This document shows positions 2,767-28,286 of a stretch of DNA of 28,359 nucleotides, in pieces. Made by a program: the position numbers and the translations under genes. Numbering within the stretch: position 1 is the first letter of the stretch; every line of letters starts with the position of its first letter. This DNA comes from a virus (Duplodnaviria; Caudoviricetes): positions 1-28,359 of the IMG/VR virus record IMGVR_UViG_3300049070_000021; one strand, given 5' to 3'. The notes beneath the pieces were generated by a model. That model ran no database searches and had not been told where the DNA came from. It saw nothing but the letters and a program-made list of their open reading frames with translations.

Positions 2767-4097
2767 TGGCTCTTTCAGCATCAACAGTTTGGGAAGTTAG
2801 AACTACTGGTAATGACGGTAACGGTGGAGGTTTCGTTACTGGCTCCGGTGGAACTGACTTTTCACAACAAGACGCTGCTCAAGCTGTATTAACTGTAGCT
2901 TCAGTATTAGGACCGGCAGCTAACCAAGTTACTGTAGCTGGTGGTGACTATACTTGTGTCGCTGGTGACGTTGGTAATATTCTTCAAATAACTGGTGGAA
3001 CTGCCACAGCAGGATTCTATCATATTACCGCTCGTGCCGGACAAGTTTGGACACTTGATAGGAATGCTGGTGCAATTGGTAATACCGTTGTTGGAGCTAT
3101 GGGTGGTGGATTAGCGAGTCCTGCTGTAGCTGCTCCACCAATGGTTAATGGCAATATTCTGTTTATTAAGGCTGGCACCTACTCAATGTCAGTCAATACT
3201 AATAATGTTGCTAATGGTAAATGGAGTAAAAGTGCTCCCGTTCTAGTTATTGGTTATGATACCAATAGAGCATGGGGTAATGTAGATACTAAACCAATCT
3301 TACAAGCTACTGTTACGCTCACTACGATGTGGACTGGTAGTAGCAATTGGGTAAACAATATAGTATTTGATGTAAATAGTCAAGCATCTACTCGTTCTGT
3401 AAGTGGTGGTGCATATACTAGATGCGAATTTAATAATGGTAATTTAGCCAATGTTCAGACTTTGGCTACTCATTGCACTGCAACTGGTAATTCTGCAACT
3501 TCATTTACTGACGGAGCTGCCGGATTCTTTTACTGTGAAGCATTTGGAAATACAGCTACCGGATTTAGTTGTAGTAATGCTAGTTTGCACAGTTGCCTAT
3601 CATACGACAATAGTGGAGCTACATCTGACGGATTTATTAATCCAAGTCTTACATCAGCTCACTTCTTCAATTGTATTGCATACAATAATGGTAGGGACGG
3701 ATTTAGAAATACAACTGGCTCACTTGTTTCACGAATGATTCTCCAAAACTGTATTGCGGAGGATAATGCTGGAATCGGAATCAACGCAGCAAATACTCAG
3801 TATCCGTCTATTGCAATCAGATGTTCAGTTTTCAATAACGGAACTGATACTGCTGGTGGATTAACTGAAGTTGATACATTGACTCCAGGTGGTTCAGTAT
3901 TTACAAATGCTGCTGCCGGAGATTTTTCTCTAAACAATACTGGTGGGGCCGGAGCTACATTAAGAGCTGCCGGATATATTGAATTTGACAGCAATGTATT
4001 TCCCGCTGGTTTAACTACTTCATATCTTGATGTTGGTGTAGCACAACATCAGGATACAGGTGGTGGAGGCGGTGGAGAGCATTCCGCTGTATTCTGA
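2766..4097 (+). CDS. Tail fibre/tailspike with right-handed parallel beta-helix (pectin-lyase-like) region
   Basis: Gly/Ala/Thr/Asn-rich; IKAGTY motif followed by repeated (N/H/Y)CxAxxN...GF coils typical of beta-helices. Confidence 0.7.
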   Translation: MALSASTVWEVRTTGNDGNGGGFVTGSGGTDFSQQDAAQAVLTVASVLGPAANQVTVAGGDYTCVAGDVGNILQITGGTATAGFYHITARAGQVWTLDRNAGAIGNTVVGAMGGGLASPAVAAPPMVNGNILFIKAGTYSMSVNTNNVANGKWSKSAPVLVIGYDTNRAWGNVDTKPILQATVTLTTMWTGSSNWVNNIVFDVNSQASTRSVSGGAYTRCEFNNGNLANVQTLATHCTATGNSATSFTDGAAGFFYCEAFGNTATGFSCSNASLHSCLSYDNSGATSDGFINPSLTSAHFFNCIAYNNGRDGFRNTTGSLVSRMILQNCIAEDNAGIGINAANTQYPSIAIRCSVFNNGTDTAGGLTEVDTLTPGGSVFTNAAAGDFSLNNTGGAGATLRAAGYIEFDSNVFPAGLTTSYLDVGVAQHQDTGGGGGGEHSAVF

Positions 4098-6412: not shown

Positions 6413-7773
6413 TGGCATTCCCTATCCGTCAATACAACATCATGGATAATATCGGTGCTGTTGGCGATGCACGTATGGCCGGTGGCTACGATGATTATGA
6501 GGATTTTGGAGTAGGTCCAGTTCAGCCTAGTCCTACATATCCTACAATGGGTGCAATTTCGCGTATTGGTCAAACACCTCCAATGGTAGACCATGCAGCA
6601 CCACAAGACCCTAATATCGCTCAGTTAATGCAGCAGTTTTATACTCCTGAAACTGAAGCAACTGATGCATTTAATCAGCTTGTTAGAAACGCACCACAGC
6701 GTAACAAGCCCGGTATTGCACGTCGTTTAGCTGCTTCTGCTGGAGCATTAGGAGCACCTAAAGGTAAAGGATTAGAAACTGCTGAACAGTTCATGTATGC
6801 CCCATTCATGCGTAATACGCAGGATTGGATGGCAAAGATGGACCCGAACTACAAAGCTGCTTCTCTCGAAAACACTCGTAATGCCAATGAACGCCAGCTT
6901 GCTGGTAACATGGCACAGTATACGATGGCCGAGAGAAAACAGACCGAAACTGAACGTAAGAATAGGTCTGAAGAAGAAATTCGTCGTAAGCGTGCAGAGG
7001 TATACGATTTCAAAGCGCGTAATCCAAATATGCGTTTTGATTTTAGTGGTCCTACTGTTAAAGCTGCTGACCCCCTCACAGGTAAGGTATACGATACTGG
7101 ACTTGCTACAGGTTCCATGACTGATATGGACCGTATCAATCTACAAGGTGAATGGGGAGTAGCTAGAGCTAGAGAAGCTGGCGGTCAAGCACGAGAAACA
7201 GAACGTGTAAGACAAGAAGGTAGGGAATCACTAGCAGATAAACGTGGATGGCAGGTTGTTCAATCTTCTGATGGACAAGCGTGGGCTGTTAATCCACAAA
7301 CAAGACAATTGGAACCAATTCAACCACCTTTAGGAGTTACTCCACCACAAGGTCCATTAACTAGACCTGGAACACCTCCTAGACCTAGTGGTGCAGGTGG
7401 CAGTGGTGGTAATGAAGCACTGAATGTTCAACGTCAACGCTTCAATACAGCTAAGCAGTTAGCTGATACAATTCCAGGTGCGAACAAGTGGATTAAATTC
7501 ACTAGTCCCACTACGTTTAGAATTGAACAACCGGGTAGATTTACCAGTGAAGCTGATAAAAAACTCTATCAAGATATCACTAGTAAAATCTATGGTTCCG
7601 GTAACAGTTCTGCTGGTGGTCCCGGAACTGGTAGAGGGGGTGGCCCCGGACGTAGTAATTTACCACCTAATCAACAGAAAACTCCAGTAAAGAAGGAGTA
7701 TAGTCAGAGTAGGAATCAAACACGCATTACCTATTCTGATGGAACTACCCAGATTGTTAATGGGAGACAGTAA
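6412..7773 (+). CDS. Putative ejection (internal virion) protein 2
   Basis: 453 aa, Cys-free, coiled-coil and Pro/Gly low-complexity tracts, TAATG coupling on both sides. Confidence 0.6.
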   Translation: MAFPIRQYNIMDNIGAVGDARMAGGYDDYEDFGVGPVQPSPTYPTMGAISRIGQTPPMVDHAAPQDPNIAQLMQQFYTPETEATDAFNQLVRNAPQRNKPGIARRLAASAGALGAPKGKGLETAEQFMYAPFMRNTQDWMAKMDPNYKAASLENTRNANERQLAGNMAQYTMAERKQTETERKNRSEEEIRRKRAEVYDFKARNPNMRFDFSGPTVKAADPLTGKVYDTGLATGSMTDMDRINLQGEWGVARAREAGGQARETERVRQEGRESLADKRGWQVVQSSDGQAWAVNPQTRQLEPIQPPLGVTPPQGPLTRPGTPPRPSGAGGSGGNEALNVQRQRFNTAKQLADTIPGANKWIKFTSPTTFRIEQPGRFTSEADKKLYQDITSKIYGSGNSSAGGPGTGRGGGPGRSNLPPNQQKTPVKKEYSQSRNQTRITYSDGTTQIVNGRQ

Positions 7774-10700
7774 TGGCGCAGAAGATACAACCCATTGACG
7801 ATTGGCAACCAGTAGATGATTGGCAGGAAATAGACGATTGGGAAGATGCAACTCCTAATCGTGGTTTCCTACAAGCATGGGATGAGGCATGGTTTAACCA
7901 ACCTCTTTCTAATAAAATCAAGGTCAATGATACTCAAATCTTTGACCCTCAGTATGCAGCCAATTTCTACGATGACCCTGCTAAACGAACTGAAGACCAG
8001 TGGAAAATACCTGATTGGGTGCCAATTGCAGGTGGTGGAACATGGCGCTCATTAGGTGCTGGTATGTTGGAGGGTGGTGGTAACGTTGTAGCCGGACTTA
8101 CTACACCTCTAAACATAGCTACTGCTGGCACTACTAGTGTAGCTAATAGGGCTGCAAAAACAGCTAGAACTCTACCTGCTTTAACTGAAGCTGCATATAC
8201 TACTGCACCTAAAGTAGCTGCTACTGCACGTAGGGCTACACAGGCTCTAGGTGCGCCTATGATAGCTTCGGGTGCAGCTAGAGTAAATCGTGGTTTAGAA
8301 GGTGGTGCAGACTACGAAGGTGATACTGATTGGGCTGATATTGCATTTGGTGTAGCTGAAGCTGCTGGCGGTGGTGCTGCTGCATTAATGCCAAAGAACT
8401 TTCCTAATGCACAGCCACGTCTACAGCAGATTGCTGATGCACGCACTCAGCCAATGGGTGATTTACCACTAAATGCACCTCATCCTGGCACATTAGATGC
8501 TGCACCATCAGGACCACTACCTACTAGAGTTACACTCAAACAGCCCACTCCTGCGGTTGTTGCAGACCTACGTAATAAAGGCTACGTATCAGGTGGTGTA
8601 GACGAGAACGGCTATCCCGTAATGATACGTAAGGACGTTCTGGATAAGATTGAAGCTCCACCAGTTAAACGCCCTGAACCAGAATCTTCGTCAATTTTTG
8701 GTGACAATGAAATCATATTTGACGAAGAAATAGCTGTCAAAAATCCAAGTGCTGCATTTATCAAGAGAATGCAGGACCAAGGATTTGCACTCGATGAAAT
8801 TGAAGGTGATACAGTCATCTTCAGACAGCCTAGAGAACAGGAAATGCGTGTTCCGGCAGAAGGTAGTGGCGGTAGTTTAGTCGAAAGGATGAAAAGAAGC
8901 GAAGAACTACTAAGAAATCCACGGGAAGCATTCATGCAACAAATGTTTCCTGAAGAACAATCTACAGTTCAACCTGAACAGCCTACATTTCCTGAAATAA
9001 TGAGGGAACCTGGTAGAAGTGAATTTTCACCTGATTTGATGCAAATTGATGAACCTGTAGGTGGTGGATATTCACCTAAATTTGTGCCTCGTAGGGGTGC
9101 ATTAGAAAACATTGGCAACGCAGAGGAAATGCGCGTTCCTAATGTCAATGAAGGTAAAGGTGGATTAAGTAACGTTGCAATGGGCGGTGCAAGTCCGCGT
9201 GTTCTGGATGTATTGGGTAGTTCTTTGTATTCGCGTGACCGTCCTACGGTTATCGCTAAGGAACTCCTACAAAATGCATTTGATGAACATCGTATTGCAG
9301 GTGTCCAAGACCCTGTTAGAGTGCTTGTTCGTCACCAAGTTAAGAATCCTATAACTGGTGAAGATGCTAAAGCCATGACTATCCGTGATAGGGGTAGAGG
9401 CTTGCCACCTGACCAGATTTATACAGTTCTTACTGACGTAGGTGAAACTGGTAAAGCAGGTATTGAGGGTGCATCAGGTGGATTTGGCTTTGCTAAAGCT
9501 GCTCCATTTTTAGGAGGTAAATACGCTCGCGTAGTTTCAGTAGTTGATATGCCTGATGGTCAGCGTATGCGATATACGTTTGAAGGCAATCCTGCTGAAT
9601 TAAAGAATCAAGCTCGTGGTGTAGCACTTAACGAAGAGGCAGTTGGACCTAATGTTCCTACAGGTCTTGAAGTAACTACCTACTTCGATAAGGAAAGCAC
9701 ATCATTCTACGATGCAACTCGATTCGTCAAGAATATGACGGAACGTTCCCCGTCTATTACTTCTGACGTATTGATGCACGAAGATTATGGTGGTTACAAA
9801 AGTAATCACGAAGATATGTTACGTAGTTGGTTGGATGAAAATCCAAATCAATTACCTGAGGAAGCATATAATGTTACGGCTGATAGATTTACCCGAGAAG
9901 AAGTTCCGCCGTTACAGGATACTATTGATACTCCTGGTGCGAAGATTAATATTCACTACGCTGAACCTGAAAGGGGTTATCAGGCTAATCAAAGCCCGAT
10001 TCACATGCTCAATAAAGGGCTGTATCAGGCTAGTGATAGTGCGTATTATGGTAACGAACCAGTTTCTAACGTGCCCCGTTCTATTGTTGCAGACATTATT
10101 GCAACAGTTGAAGAAGGACACGCGGACTATCCATTTACGGCCAATCGTGAACAGTTAAACACGAAGGTTAATCAGGCTATCAGTAAATGGGTAGACGAGA
10201 ACATTACCTCTGGTGCTCAGAAGAAGCGCCTCAAAGAACTACAACGTAAATACGATTCAATTACTGCTATTGACGTAGAGACTCCTGTTAGCGGTCCACG
10301 TCAGATTCATATTTTGGATGATGGTAATAGACTTGCTCCTGAAGAAATTCAAATGATTCAGGAATCACAGTCTTTTAACAGCATTCTAACTACACTGGAT
10401 GATGTTAACAAGGCTATTCTAGGTGTTGCTGATACACTTGGTTGGAGCCTAACACCATCTGGTAGATTAAAGAAATTCGGATTATTGATTCAGGCTCCCG
10501 ACCAGCGTGGAACTACGCTTGGTATTCACATTCCACGTCCTGATGACCTAAATGATTCAGCTATTCTCATTAATCTGTTTGAACATTTGAAACGGGTAAT
10601 GGGTTCACCTGAACCATTAGACGGTCTATCAACTGGGCTGCTTACTACTATCACCCATGAACAAGCGCACATTCCGGGTGGTGGTCACGATACTGGATTT

Positions 10701-12356
10701 GCGTATCGACATGCTCAATTGATGGAAGCATTGGGCAGACGTAAAACCAACGAATTGCTAGATACTCTAGCGGAGGTATTTGACGATGGAGCCGGAGGAA
10801 TTAATCCCGAGTTATCAGAGTTTCTATCAATCTATGATGAGTCAAGGCTTAGAGAACCGAGCGGCGATGATGCTATCCTCGCAACTGGAGTCCATAGCCG
10901 AAGACCCACGAATAGAACCGGAGGAAAAGAAGGTAATGCTGAACGCGCTGACGCAAGTAGGGATGAACCTTCGACTCTTAGGGAACTCTACGAACTCCCC
11001 AGAGGTCTAACTACTACTGCTGACTTGTCATTTGGATTTAGACAAGGATTACCCCTAATCACTACTAAACAGTGGTGGACTTCATGGGGTGAAGCAATAA
11101 AAGCATTGGGTTCAGATGGCGCATACCGTGAGGTAATGGCTAAGATTGAAGCTGACCCAATCATGCAGCGCCGAGTAGACTTAACTACTGGCAAAGTTAA
11201 GAAGTCATTCGCGCAAGAAGCAGGTTTAGCTATTACTGACCTTAGTAAGAAGCTAAATAATCGTGAAGAATCTCAGCGTTCTACACTTGCTGAGAGACTA
11301 CCAGCAGGTATAGGTAGGGTAGTTAAGGCTAGTAATCGTGCCTATAACGCCTATCTAAACCAACTACGATTTGAAACATTCAAGTCACTTCTCGACGATG
11401 CGCGTGCAATGTCAGTAGAAGGAGCTGCTCAGGGTGAAATACAACATCCTGGTGTAAGTGGTTGGTTTGGCAATAAGATGAAAACTGATGCGGCAAAAGC
11501 AGCAGAACTTAATCCTTATAGGAATATGGTTCTTGCTAAGCAAATTGCTGACTTCGTGAATACGGGCACAGGACGTGGCCCGCTACGTATGGACTTACCT
11601 ACCATCGAAAAAGGTAAGTTCACAATGAAAGAGCGTTCGCTCGAACAGAACGCTGAACTACTTACAAATCTACTGTTTTCACCCAGACTATTTGCATCTC
11701 GTGTGCGTATGCTTAATCCTGGCACATATGTAATGGCAGACCCCTTCGTGCGTAAACAATACGTCAAGGCTCTGCTTGCTACAGCCGGTGCATGGGGAAG
11801 CATTAGTAGCATTGCTGCGATGGCTGGTGCTGATGTATCATTAGACCCAAATAGTTCTGACTTTGGTAAAATCAAAATTGGTAATACGCGGCTGGACCCT
11901 GCTGGTGGATTCCAACAGTTCCTTGTTACTGCGAGTAGATTCCTGAGTGGTGAATACACTTCATCATCTACTCAGCAAGAATCAGAACTAGGACAGGGAT
12001 TCCGTGCAGAAACTAGAAAGGACGTAATAGAAAGATTTGGTGTGAATAAGCTACATCCAGTAGCTAGATTCGCGTATGACCTAATGTTTGCATCCAAGTA
12101 TCAGCCGGTTAACATTGGCGATAGAATCGTCCAGATGTTTATTCCGCTGATTATTCAGGATGTAATTGAACTAGCTCAGGAAGACCCAACCCTGCTCCCA
12201 CTTGTAGGTTTAGTAGGAGCAGGTATGGGAACTCAAACTTACTCGCAGGGTGAAGTAGAAGGTAAACTCGTTCCACCTGATAAAGATTGGATTTGGACAG
12301 GTGGCACACCACGTAGAGCTTGGGATGCTCTTATTGGTAATGAGAGTGACTTCTAA
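7773..12356 (+). CDS. Large polyvalent ejection protein with internal GHKL ATPase and HExxH metallopeptidase domains
   Basis: 1527 aa, last gene of the virion arm, Cys-free. GHKL boxes KELLQNAFD, IRDRGRGL, GASGGFGFAK, TGLEVT; Hsp90-middle-like PFTANREQL; THEQAHIPGGGHD zincin motif. Confidence 0.8.
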   Translation: MAQKIQPIDDWQPVDDWQEIDDWEDATPNRGFLQAWDEAWFNQPLSNKIKVNDTQIFDPQYAANFYDDPAKRTEDQWKIPDWVPIAGGGTWRSLGAGMLEGGGNVVAGLTTPLNIATAGTTSVANRAAKTARTLPALTEAAYTTAPKVAATARRATQALGAPMIASGAARVNRGLEGGADYEGDTDWADIAFGVAEAAGGGAAALMPKNFPNAQPRLQQIADARTQPMGDLPLNAPHPGTLDAAPSGPLPTRVTLKQPTPAVVADLRNKGYVSGGVDENGYPVMIRKDVLDKIEAPPVKRPEPESSSIFGDNEIIFDEEIAVKNPSAAFIKRMQDQGFALDEIEGDTVIFRQPREQEMRVPAEGSGGSLVERMKRSEELLRNPREAFMQQMFPEEQSTVQPEQPTFPEIMREPGRSEFSPDLMQIDEPVGGGYSPKFVPRRGALENIGNAEEMRVPNVNEGKGGLSNVAMGGASPRVLDVLGSSLYSRDRPTVIAKELLQNAFDEHRIAGVQDPVRVLVRHQVKNPITGEDAKAMTIRDRGRGLPPDQIYTVLTDVGETGKAGIEGASGGFGFAKAAPFLGGKYARVVSVVDMPDGQRMRYTFEGNPAELKNQARGVALNEEAVGPNVPTGLEVTTYFDKESTSFYDATRFVKNMTERSPSITSDVLMHEDYGGYKSNHEDMLRSWLDENPNQLPEEAYNVTADRFTREEVPPLQDTIDTPGAKINIHYAEPERGYQANQSPIHMLNKGLYQASDSAYYGNEPVSNVPRSIVADIIATVEEGHADYPFTANREQLNTKVNQAISKWVDENITSGAQKKRLKELQRKYDSITAIDVETPVSGPRQIHILDDGNRLAPEEIQMIQESQSFNSILTTLDDVNKAILGVADTLGWSLTPSGRLKKFGLLIQAPDQRGTTLGIHIPRPDDLNDSAILINLFEHLKRVMGSPEPLDGLSTGLLTTITHEQAHIPGGGHDTGFAYRHAQLMEALGRRKTNELLDTLAEVFDDGAGGINPELSEFLSIYDESRLREPSGDDAILATGVHSRRPTNRTGGKEGNAERADASRDEPSTLRELYELPRGLTTTADLSFGFRQGLPLITTKQWWTSWGEAIKALGSDGAYREVMAKIEADPIMQRRVDLTTGKVKKSFAQEAGLAITDLSKKLNNREESQRSTLAERLPAGIGRVVKASNRAYNAYLNQLRFETFKSLLDDARAMSVEGAAQGEIQHPGVSGWFGNKMKTDAAKAAELNPYRNMVLAKQIADFVNTGTGRGPLRMDLPTIEKGKFTMKERSLEQNAELLTNLLFSPRLFASRVRMLNPGTYVMADPFVRKQYVKALLATAGAWGSISSIAAMAGADVSLDPNSSDFGKIKIGNTRLDPAGGFQQFLVTASRFLSGEYTSSSTQQESELGQGFRAETRKDVIERFGVNKLHPVARFAYDLMFASKYQPVNIGDRIVQMFIPLIIQDVIELAQEDPTLLPLVGLVGAGMGTQTYSQGEVEGKLVPPDKDWIWTGGTPRRAWDALIGNESDF

Positions 12357-12577
12357 ACTCCACCATCTACACGAGTAACTTCGGCTGCGCGTGGTCCTTT
12401 GGGTGAAGGGACGATAGTAAAAGTAACATCTACTTTACGTCCCTTCATCATATCTTCAGCTAAGTCCTCAAAGAATCCATTGAGGTCGTCCTTGTGGAAG
12501 AAGTATTCCTTACCATCTTCCCCCTCGATGAATCCAAACCTACGTTCCAGAACGAGTTTAATTACCTTACCCTTCAT
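12353..12577 (-). CDS. Cold-shock domain protein
   Basis: True start probably MKGKVIK at 12577 (GAAGGGGGG upstream); RNP1 RFGFI, RNP2 YFFH, C-terminal KGPRAAEV. Confidence 0.9.
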   Translation of the reverse strand: MKGKVIKLVLERRFGFIEGEDGKEYFFHKDDLNGFFEDLAEDMMKGRKVDVTFTIVPSPKGPRAAEVTRVDGGV

Positions 12578-12809
12578 ACGGCCCCCCTTCGTTATAGTCG
12601 GCTGGTCTAAGAGTAGTTTTTCGTAATCGAAATTTGCAAAACACACAGTATTTGCACCTTCCAAACATCGTTGTTCCGCACTCAACACACTTCCAGTTAG
12701 GCACATTTAGATACCAGTCATACCACCGCTGAGGCTTGATGTTACCAGTAGGAGTAGATACCGTTTCTACTCGTTCCTCGTATTCATCAGGTGGTGGTAT
12801 TATTGGCAT
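12567..12809 (-). CDS. Small zinc-finger protein
   Basis: CVEC...CKYCVFC; overlaps neighbours in operon fashion. Confidence 0.6.
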   Translation of the reverse strand: MPIIPPPDEYEERVETVSTPTGNIKPQRWYDWYLNVPNWKCVECGTTMFGRCKYCVFCKFRLRKTTLRPADYNEGGPYEG

Positions 12810-17542: not shown

Positions 17543-17675
17543 ATTTCACCTCACTAATGAACGTCTTCGAGCAACAGACGCACAAGTATCTGTATACCAC
17601 CGGATATACGTAGTTCAATATCGTCAGTAGTTCAAATAGTCGTGGGTCGTCATTCGTGCAATGTGGGCACTTCAT
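17520..17675 (-). CDS. 51-aa zinc-ribbon microprotein (not in ORF track)
   Basis: MKCPHCTNDDPRLFELLTILNYVYPVVYRYLCVCCSKTF...; GGAG RBS; fills the gap between neighbours. Confidence 0.65.
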   Translation of the reverse strand: MKCPHCTNDDPRLFELLTILNYVYPVVYRYLCVCCSKTFISEVKCDTAGTP

Positions 17676-17919
17676 CTTTCTTCTCCTGCTCTAAGACTTT
17701 AATCTGGATTGCACGCCAACCCTTACCAGGAATTTGCACAGGTATAAACTCGCACGGCATACCTGTCTTCAATTCCTTAAAGCCTAGCGTATCCTGTCGT
17801 AAAGCAGTCCAATGAAAAAAGATGCGTGTAAATTCAATTTCTTTGGATGAGATGAATCCCCATCCCTTTGCGTGAACCTTGATTATTCTTCCAAGAACTC
17901 TCTTGGATTCATTATCCAT
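17650..17919 (-). CDS. Cold-shock domain protein 2
   Basis: KGWGFI (RNP1), IFFHWTAL (RNP2), GKGWRAIQI; start likely MDNES at 17919. Confidence 0.85.
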   Translation of the reverse strand: MDNESKRVLGRIIKVHAKGWGFISSKEIEFTRIFFHWTALRQDTLGFKELKTGMPCEFIPVQIPGKGWRAIQIKVLEQEKKDEVPTLHE

Positions 17920-17942
17920 TGTAATTCTCACAGGCTAAAGGC

Positions 17943-27012: not shown

Positions 27013-27090
27013 TTACAATTCTGTAAGTGTCGGAAATCGCTACACCGGGAGACAAAGTTACACTGTCAGGCTGACATTACAGAATTGTAA
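27013..27090. repeat. 14-bp perfect inverted repeat (operator/enhancer-like)
   Basis: TTACAATTCTGTAA (27013-27026) and TTACAGAATTGTAA (27077-27090); each copy is itself TTACA-N4-TGTAA. Confidence 0.75.
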
Positions 27091-27421
27091 TATCTTGTAA
27101 TCGCTTCTTGTATACAACTAATGGCTGAGCATATGTGGCTATATCAAGTTGTCTTTGATTATCCTCCATAGCTTTATCCATCATCTTACGAATTAATGTA
27201 ATCATGTCTTTACTGATTACAGCTCCGCCCGGAGGATGAACCCATGATGATACGAACTGTGGAGTAGTCGAGCGCGTAATGCCCATCCACGTCCCTACAG
27301 TAGCATCATTTAGTCCCCAATCTATTCCATATAGCTTGTCTATTGCTTGCTTAGGTCTGTATGGAATGAGTGGAGCTAGAGGGACAGCCAATAGAGCGCG
27401 CATGAAGGTGCGTCTATCCAT
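27077..27421 (-). CDS. Twin-arginine-motif protein B with putative capsid-like segment
   Basis: MDRRTFMRALLAVPLAPL; GGAG RBS; internal LYGIDWGLNDATVGTWMGITRSTTP. Confidence 0.7.
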   Translation of the reverse strand: MDRRTFMRALLAVPLAPLIPYRPKQAIDKLYGIDWGLNDATVGTWMGITRSTTPQFVSSWVHPPGGAVISKDMITLIRKMMDKAMEDNQRQLDIATYAQPLVVYKKRLQDITIL

Positions 27422-27701
27422 TCTTTATCTCCAAAGGTATGCGAATATCACCTGTGCCAACTACTATAGATTGCTTAGATAGAGCACGATAGAACATATC
27501 GTCACGCTCGAATAGCTGGCGTATCTTAGGCGTAAGACGTTCTATTTCGAGCGCGATAATCTGTGATTCAGTTAATCTGTGTATAGATCTGGATGGCAGG
27601 AATATAGTCTTCTGCCCCGGTATCCACAGTAACTTATCGAGGTCTAATGTGTGAGCTACACCTGAAGCCAGTATAGCGCGTATGAAGGCACGGCGATTCA
27701 C
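27414..27701 (-). CDS. Twin-arginine-motif protein A with putative capsid N-terminal segment
   Basis: MNRRAFIRAILASGVA..LD.DKLLWIPGQKTIFLP; GTG start overlapping the upstream TGA; then ESQIIALEIERLTPKIRQLFERDDMFY...IRIPLEI. Confidence 0.7.
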   Translation of the reverse strand: MNRRAFIRAILASGVAHTLDLDKLLWIPGQKTIFLPSRSIHRLTESQIIALEIERLTPKIRQLFERDDMFYRALSKQSIVVGTGDIRIPLEIKNG

Positions 27702-27964
27702 TTTATCCCCTTTTCTTTTAGGAATGCATCCAATACATCAATGTCTACTCCAAGTGTGCATTGTTCACACTCAGGCATATCCATCTGCATTGATTCTTCA
27801 GTCATAGTGAATTGTTCACCGCACTTCCAGCATATTGAACGTTTCCCTACAATGACATGCGCTAATCCCTGATGCACAAACCATTTACATCCGTCTAACG
27901 CGCATCGCCAAGTGCTAACGTGCTTACCAGAAACGCGCATGAACTGATGCGTATGTTTTACCAT
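27698..27964 (-). CDS. Zinc-binding protein, first gene of the early operon
   Basis: HTH...C-x4-C...CWKC...CEQC; AGGAG RBS. Confidence 0.7.
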   Translation of the reverse strand: MVKHTHQFMRVSGKHVSTWRCALDGCKWFVHQGLAHVIVGKRSICWKCGEQFTMTEESMQMDMPECEQCTLGVDIDVLDAFLKEKGIK

Positions 27965-27987
27965 TGTGTTCTCCTACATAATGTGAT

Positions 27988-28214
27988 TACATGTAATGTC
28001 CTATTTAGAGGACAGGTGTGTCTGTGTGTCCATCATATCATACCCTCCGGGGGGTTGTCAAGGGCAGGGGTTCAGGATTACATTTAATAATTATAAAAAA
28101 AAAAAAAAATAAAAAAAACTAAAACCTCTTCTCGACGGCTTGGTAGTGTGCCCTAGTGCCCCTATAGAGGTAACACACACACACACACATCCACTTTTGA
28201 GGACATTACATGTA
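27988..28214. repeat. Imperfect inverted repeat flanking the promoter and poly(A) tract
   Basis: TACATGTAATGTCCT (27988-28002) is the exact reverse complement of 28200-28214; similarity continues into GT-rich versus (CA)n tracts. Confidence 0.7.
28032..28061 (-). promoter_or_regulatory. Sigma70-type early promoter
   Basis: TTGACA-N18-TATGAT with extended -10 TG, an upstream A/T tract, about 70 nt before the first minus-strand ATG. Confidence 0.75.
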
Positions 28215-28286
28215 TTTTATACGAATGGCGCACAGCTTATGCGGGGTTCGCACGGTTACGTGCGAGCTGTATGTAGGAGGGAATGT

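Follow-up and report, generated by a model that had tools for sequence, protein, structure and literature searches.

Several proteins of bacterial defence systems recognise phage capsid proteins. According to the respective publications, CapRel binds the capsid protein 1:1, with predicted contacts at the spine helix and the P-domain sheet (PMC9712102), whereas in Thoeris ThsB1 binds a capsid monomer via one loop and ThsB2 needs a second, distant loop (PMC12578639). A capsid mutant that keeps ThsB1 binding fails to recruit ThsB2 and causes no activation, as follows from the need for two distant sites (PMC12578639), and a review states that some capsid triggers require oligomers (PMC13728456). 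Because of such two-site or oligomer requirements, a capsid piece that offers one site only could bind without activating and thus act as an antagonist. A short capsid peptide can also be a trigger in itself, as reported for Lit and the Gol peptide (PMC12926258), and any decoy must therefore differ from the trigger. Proteins are directed to the Tat translocase by signal peptides with a twin-arginine motif, given as RRxFLK (PMC9360617).

Here we analyze two small phage genes, ORF A and ORF B, whose N-termini fit this motif and whose bodies resemble parts of a capsid protein. They are encoded in a 28,359-nt stretch of DNA from a tailed phage (Caudoviricetes; IMG/VR record IMGVR_UViG_3300049070_000021), referred to as the window, which is the entire record of this phage.

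Genomic context of the two genes

The gene content of the window as obtained by library scans includes a polymerase of the PolA type with a fused uracil-glycosylase domain, an SNF2 helicase, and a peptidase M15. A capsid gene was named in the window by neither of two library scans, and a six-frame scan with a capsid profile (see below) returned only A and B. A minus-strand operon begins at the right end of the window and comprises an 88-aa Cys-rich gene, A, and B in this order, with overlapping stops and starts (Table 1). Both A and B are preceded by a Shine-Dalgarno-like stretch. The Cys-rich gene product had a weak match to a Pfam zinc ribbon (E 0.003, under the cut-off). Its homolog heads the corresponding array in the close relative L233 (L numbers denote related loci), which has a 12/12 promoter site at the equivalent place and three leader genes in tandem, the last two being the counterparts of A and B. 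The third leader gene of L233 (3866-4177) is located between the Cys-rich gene and A, is absent from the window, and encodes a body that matched none of 47 gene-family profiles.

Table 1 Features of the early operon in the window (minus strand throughout)
Feature	Position	Strand	Basis or remark
Putative sigma-70-type promoter heading the operon	28032..28061	-	11/12 matches, extended -10 (TG)
First gene, 88 aa, Cys-rich (zinc-ribbon-like)	27698..27964	-	Stop overlaps A start
ORF A, 95 aa: leader, conserved motif, and capsid N-terminal piece	27414..27701	-	GTG start overlapping upstream stop
A residues 1-19: twin-arginine leader	27645..27701	-	RRxF[LI][RK]; helix predicted at 3-12; uncharged stretch of 11
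A residues 20-36: family motif DxDxLLWxPGxKTIFLP	27594..27644	-	Sequence conservation
A residues 43-95: copy of capsid residues 3-56 (N-terminal arm and next strand)	27417..27575	-	Profile; long helix 45-75 predicted
ORF B, 114 aa: plain RR leader and two capsid pieces in apparently reversed order	27077..27421	-	8-nt overlap with A
B residues 1-21: twin-arginine leader, 13 uncharged residues, then basic residues	27359..27421	-	Pfam TAT_signal 14.7 bits vs cut-off 22.7
B residues 27-69: copy of capsid residues ~223-265	27215..27343	-	Capsid profile, 23.8 bits
B residues 72-94: likely copy of capsid long (spine-position) helix 104-128	27140..27208	-	Alignment, segment picked by eye

The original prediction, which had been made from the sequence alone, placed both ORFs as genes two and three behind an early promoter, and the present analysis arrives at the same positions, on the minus strand behind a sigma-70-like promoter. 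It also called the genes immediate-early. This term suits their position in this phage and in L233 but not the family as a whole, since placement varies across 31 related loci: in 17 the leader gene is located between the SSB and DNA polymerase genes, in six after the primase gene or terminal in the operon, and in the remainder at other places. The leader genes were on the strand of the replication genes in 29 of the 30 loci that have such markers, and in some P22-type relatives several kb at most separate them from the capsid gene. Tandem arrays vary in size, with three genes in L233. Among 19 relatives chosen by their capsid, including 14 records that are at least 90% complete, none contained the leader (positive control 5/5); the profile used could miss B-type leaders, and a capsid-profile search of the same 19 records added one piece. 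Leader genes are thus small, optional, and mobile within the early/replication operon. A GTDB scan for the host hit a single Armatimonadota MAG, on a contig of 2 kb, in addition to one match ascribed to chance.

Some further features of these genomes were noted. The early promoter sits within an inverted repeat of ~40 nt (arms at 27988-28029 and 28173-28214 in the window, and at 3303-3341 and 3478-3516 in L233). Its outer arms are kept in L233, and the inner parts differ but remain complementary, 12 of 43 predicted pairs being changed on both sides in this comparison of two sequences. Candidate roles for the repeat are those of a DNA hairpin, of an element of an origin or terminus, and of an invertible promoter. 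A 13-nt near-palindromic box occurs three times around the promoter (27985-27997, 28076-28088, and 28204-28216); two of the boxes are kept in L233, and they are possible operator sites. On the plus strand, the virion block ends with a gene for a 1,527-aa protein (7773-12356) whose residues ~474-579 form a domain of the HSP90-like ATPase or rIIA-like type, unusual for an apparent injected protein. Cold-shock-domain genes flank the polymerase-primase pair on either side (12353-12706 and 17650-17931), and in many relatives the leader gene comes directly after the first of them. In L017 (8149-11700) the DNA polymerase is encoded in two genes with a leader gene in between, and the polymerase is apparently split in L023 too.

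Capsid origin of the gene bodies

A search of viral contigs with A yielded 17 loci, 11 of which matched residues 43-95 of A alone, at 42-54%. These 11 matches were the N-termini of proteins of ~415 aa (one cut by the contig end). All three of the 415-aa proteins tested matched PHROG 14242 'major head protein' (E 1e-7 to 6e-5), and a match to NF033394 had an E value of 4e-6, under the cut-off of that family. The top two Foldseek matches of a low-confidence structural model (pLDDT 58) were phage capsids (E 4e-4); a search of PDB sequences with the capsid profile gave no match. The gene for the 415-aa protein comes after terminase-, portal-, and scaffold-like genes (labels by motif and position). 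These data identify the donor, as judged from homology and gene order, as an HK97-type major capsid protein of 415 residues. In L009-L011, the region downstream of this capsid gene contains homologs of several tail-side genes of the window, and the phage's own capsid is therefore probably of the same family.

On a profile built from 56 capsid rows, residues 43-95 of A scored 47.5 bits at positions 3-56, and B scored 24.1 bits from position 223. Of 783 six-frame segments of the window scored on the capsid profile, the best after A and B reached 2.8 bits. The piece corresponding to capsid residues ~223-265 was also found behind leaders in L016, L017, and L045. Residues 72-94 of B aligned best to the long helix at ~104-128 in all 17 capsid proteins compared (0/500 shuffles reached the mean and 1/500 the maximum score), and the capsid model places this helix at 108-131. 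This second match is the weaker one, because the segment was picked by eye and scored only 1.1 bits on the capsid profile. If it is right, B would be a capsid mosaic in reversed order. The original prediction had likened the body of A to a major capsid N-terminus and that of B to internal capsid segments. Both likenesses are borne out by the profile scores, more firmly for residues ~223-265 than for the helix, and the bodies of A and B are confirmed as homologous capsid pieces, old and conserved as far as sequence comparison can tell. The capsid-like extent is 53 residues in A and about 43 + 23 in B, and the full assembling fold is absent.

A profile search found 395 relatives of A. The best-kept residues of the A body (I48, E52, F64, D67, F70, and Y71) are mostly hydrophobic or aromatic, E52 and D67 being the additions. 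As 35 of 103 scored A-family rows stop 5-14 residues past the FY pair, the core of the A body corresponds to capsid residues ~3-37. An AlphaFold2 model of A based on 108 rows consisted of separate helices (3-12, 21-25, and 45-75; pTM 0.33) without a globular fold, and Foldseek found no fold match for it. Neither A nor B belonged to a family in PHROG, Pfam, or NCBIfam. Among cultured phages A had no match and B only weak ones, which we put down to chance, and in the ESM Atlas A matched only unnamed clusters, all scoring below 0.9, and B gave no usable result.

The leader family and its cargo

From a total of 1.84 billion, a 37-residue profile of the A-type leader retrieved 3,530 clusters at E≤0.001, the weak end of which may contain ordinary Tat signals, and 1,267 at E≤1e-10; the family thus comprises more than 1,000 clusters defined at 50% identity. 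The best 150 clusters, ranked on the leader alone and including five already found with A, were all short (46-194 aa) and contained the RR pair in 150/150. Their bodies matched a P22-coat-like profile in 38 cases and the profile of the 415-aa capsid family in 14 (≥10 bits), i.e., 52 of 150 in total, and the other 98 bodies matched neither capsid profile. The original prediction had supposed that other structural-protein fragments follow this leader; further capsid pieces were found there, these 52 among them.

The cargo was compared with other phage genes as well. When 189 bodies were scored on 47 profiles of gene families from this phage group, which include terminase, portal, scaffold, and polymerase, 44 reached ≥12 bits and every one of these did so on capsid, with no match to the terminase, portal, scaffold, or polymerase profiles (shuffled bodies at 10 bits, 0/945). 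BLAST of the bodies against 655 long frames from the window and the records of 14 relatives, two of which were covered only to base 39,000, gave 45 matches, 44 of them to capsid proteins. In the first locus set, which was seeded with A and hence biased to it, 43 of 86 bodies reached ≥10 bits, compared with five control frames out of 6,478, all five of which also resemble capsid sequence. The same 14 records and the window contained 29 small frames with an RR leader by pattern (some spurious). Twelve of these matched a large gene of their own record, which was the capsid gene in 12/12, vs such a self-match for 21 of 5,183 other small frames. Six of the 12 donors were of the 415-aa family, three of PF11651, one of PF25209/PF10124, and two P22-like by likeness only. 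In these self-matches the cargo follows the carrier's own capsid family, across three capsid families. Since profiles detect conserved stretches best, the list of capsid pieces that appear to be chosen is biased.

The pieces used differ between close relatives, and capsid pieces also occur in genes without a leader. Small genes without an RR leader in L017 (13972-14295) and L023 (11106-11429) bear capsid residues ~326/361-391 and start with a stretch that by eye resembles capsid residues 62-71. The P22-coat-type phage L060 has five RR-leader genes in tandem (6905-10072), two of which weakly match its own coat protein. One leader protein (P0266) matched a terminase PHROG (E 0.0008). A Walker-A-like stretch in L016 that by eye seemed terminase-derived was rejected (-0.1 bits on the terminase profile). 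By eye, some unassigned bodies (P0298, P0307, P0308, P0321, P0340, and P0363) resemble head-decoration or portal pieces, and a likeness to N-terminal arms of further capsid families is common.

Relationship of the leader to Tat signal peptides

The RR pair was invariant in the 108 rows of the A family and in all 58 leaders found via the downstream motif, a set whose confirmation step favours leaders resembling that of A. In 133 of 165 A-type leaders the spacing from RR to W was 23. The TATFIND rule combines a motif pattern with at least 13 uncharged residues. Its motif pattern was present in 156 of the 165 A-type leaders, and the uncharged stretch after the motif, which has 11 residues in A (also the mode) and 13 in B, was at least 13 residues long in 38 and shorter in 127. 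The curated Tat profiles have cut-offs of 22.7 bits (PF10518) and 16.7 bits (TIGR01409). A had no Pfam Tat match, B remained under the cut-off with 14.7 bits, and neither matched TIGR01409. Among the relatives, 0 of 145 reached the Pfam cut-off and 66 of these matched at E≤0.1 (by-eye count), and 8 of 18 hand-picked sequences reached that of TIGR01409. The PDB matches of the leader profile include the signal peptides of CueO, NapA, and thiosulfate reductase, at E values that are not significant (0.4-2.8). Signal-peptidase sites have small residues at -3 and -1. Position 16 of A is always occupied by G, A, or S across the 108 rows, and cleavage behind it would be compatible with such a site but would leave a very short signal. 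A predicted complex of A (108-row alignment) with E. coli TatC scored 0.00, which we counted neither for nor against an interaction.

The leader of A thus resembles the n-region of Tat signals and is a putative export signal, with full export no more likely than docking alone. The proposal that both genes start with Tat signal peptides holds for the RR motif, including its conservation among homologs, but not for the curated cut-offs or the length of the uncharged run in A. Similarly, the proposed leader RRxF..LLWxPGxKTIFLP describes A, which carries the LLWxPGxKTIFLP motif, but not B, which has a plain RR leader without it.

Age of the pieces and selection

In 16 genomes with both genes, the piece was 32-58% identical to the carrier's own capsid, which was the top match for its piece in two of the 16 genomes (median rank 7). 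Third positions of identical codons agreed in 121 of 267 cases (~0.45), a value like that for the capsids of other phages. Two candidate explanations, recent copying from the own capsid gene and a DNA-level (CRISPR-type) decoy, were rejected, as third positions were no nearer to the own capsid than to others. The pieces evolve much faster than the capsids. In a tree of pieces and capsid N-termini the two sets separated at 94/99, which neither shows nor rejects a single origin. Three genomes that have a divergent capsid, and that are related and not independent, contained pieces leaning to that capsid subgroup (1 of 364 permutations).

Compared with L232/L233, dN/dS was 0.13 for A (0.07 for the leader and 0.21 for the helix) and 0.12-0.21 across the leader and both pieces of B, all from small counts; three other pairs had values of 0.15-0.20. 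These ratios indicate that A and B are under purifying selection.

Possible functions

The reading that we favour, with somewhat less than even confidence, is that A and B are non-activating capsid decoys, which bind capsid-sensing proteins and park them at the Tat translocase or the membrane. The decoy would be made ahead of the real capsid protein (an expression order that we infer), and its capsid piece would serve as the binding site for a bacterial protein that recognises capsids. The leader would act as an anchor that keeps the sensor-decoy pair at the TatBC receptor or the inner membrane, where the bound sensor would stay unactivated and would be removed by tethering, export, or proteolysis. 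The features that led to this proposal are the modular build, the capsid origin of the bodies, selection, optional presence, the host-type promoter upstream, and the match to the own capsid family in relatives. A mimic of the trigger would have this look, i.e., capsid-only cargo matched to the carrier's family in optional, mobile early or middle genes under selection. Against the decoy reading stand the capacity of a short capsid peptide to trigger defence by itself, the loose tracking of the own capsid (first in 2/16, median rank 7) and the fast evolution of the pieces, the 98 of 150 bodies and the third gene of L233 that lack a profile match, and the Tat link, which rests on the motif while A and B stay under the cut-offs. 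A wider version of the proposal is more tentative still, namely that numerous unrelated tailed phages carry a library of self-mimics, composed of a fixed twin-arginine tag and exchangeable pieces of their own capsid, which would bind sensors unactivated and carry these to or across the Tat translocase.

Alternatively, the capsid piece may bind capsid subunits in place of the same segment and the leader may remove them, which would mop up own premature subunits or poison a related co-infecting phage. We consider this unlikely, although a cargo that matches the own capsid family, the leaning of pieces to the divergent capsid subgroup in three related genomes (1/364 permutations), and the mostly hydrophobic or aromatic kept positions of the A body (I48, F64, F70, and Y71, plus E52 and D67), as expected for a packing face, all agree with it. 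A poison of the own capsid family would harm its carrier, the identity of pieces to the own capsid (32-58%) is no higher than to the capsids of other phages, and close relatives use different pieces.

Somewhat less probable is that the leader is the working part, which jams or competes at TatBC and thereby cuts the export of Tat-dependent host proteins (e.g., phage receptors), with the capsid piece as filler drawn from a convenient gene. The leader is indeed the most conserved part (dN/dS 0.07 in A, RR invariant), the shortness of its uncharged stretch is in keeping with binding but no export, and the 98 of 150 bodies that match no capsid profile are compatible with filler. If the body were filler, any gene could have supplied it, yet the profiles for terminase, portal, scaffold, and polymerase all went unmatched. 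In addition, the body keeps specific capsid residues under selection, and capsid-piece genes without a leader exist.

Satellites encode proteins of the Sid, Psu, TcaP, or Ccm type that bind capsids. The pieces might be decoys against such satellite or prophage proteins, which bind the helper capsid to redirect or block its assembly, and not against host sensors. Their anatomy and patchy presence fit this equally well, but the early position fits a conflict at the late assembly stage less well, and we regard it as improbable. We judge it about as improbable, or slightly more so, that the genes encode accessory assembly factors which tie nascent proheads to the membrane. The predicted helical leader joined to a capsid-like helix and the proximity of leader genes to the capsid gene in some P22-type relatives (within several kb) would suit such a role; against it, the leader is absent from 19/19 capsid-chosen relatives, the genes belong to the early/replication operon in this phage group, and the cargo varies among relatives. 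Neutral debris of recombination with the capsid gene, as the long branches and varied ends might suggest, is hardly credible in view of open frames in hundreds of relatives, dN/dS well under 1, and third positions that are saturated while residues are kept.

If A and B are capsid decoys, they represent a new kind of counter-defence that joins mimicry of the phage's own trigger with a host trafficking tag. Each cargo would be a bait for pulling down unidentified sensors, and with such ready-made baits it becomes directly testable which capsid surfaces sensors recognise; were the wider self-mimic library real, its pieces would be a map of the capsid surfaces read by bacterial sensors. Even under the alternatives, a large family under selection shows fragments of the most conserved phage structural gene being used again as proteins in their own right, and phages with this leader family may engage the Tat pathway.

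Comparison with known systems

A search of mostly open-access literature found no description of a design that combines a twin-arginine leader with a capsid fragment. The fusion of leader and capsid piece is real and has no earlier description in the literature searched; what it does is proposed from the features above. The N-terminal RRxF[LI][RK] motif is shared with Tat signal peptides (PF10518, TIGR01409; motif as in PMC9360617). In contrast to these, the A-type leader has an uncharged stretch of mostly 11 residues followed by a fixed acidic/Trp-Pro-Gly motif, and A and B remain under the profile cut-offs. Whereas Tat substrates are folded enzymes, the cargo here consists of a small part of a capsid protein, for which no globular fold is predicted.

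Homology links the bodies to short segments of HK97-fold capsids (PHROG 14242/NF033394-like, P22 coat PF11651, and PF25209/PF10124), but they differ from these proteins in being pieces of 20-60 residues, sometimes in changed order, behind a foreign leader, outside the structural operon, and too small for a shell. The proposed targets would be of the type of CapRel-SJ46, Sau-Thoeris ThsB1/B2, and Lit, which are reported to bind or be triggered by a capsid protein or peptide (PMC9712102, PMC12578639, PMC12926258). B seems to carry the helix at the spine position, an element that CapRel is predicted to contact (PMC9712102). In the accessible parts of these sources, escape from CapRel-SJ46, Thoeris, or Lit occurs through capsid mutations or unrelated inhibitors, and none is described via free capsid pieces with a targeting leader. 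The closest functional analogs would be anti-defence sponges and mimics such as the Tad proteins and the antitoxin mimic Gp145, which are likewise small and optional and titrate or bind a defence component (PMC13728456). Those proteins bind signals or enzymes, whereas A and B would mimic the phage's own trigger and add an address tag to it.
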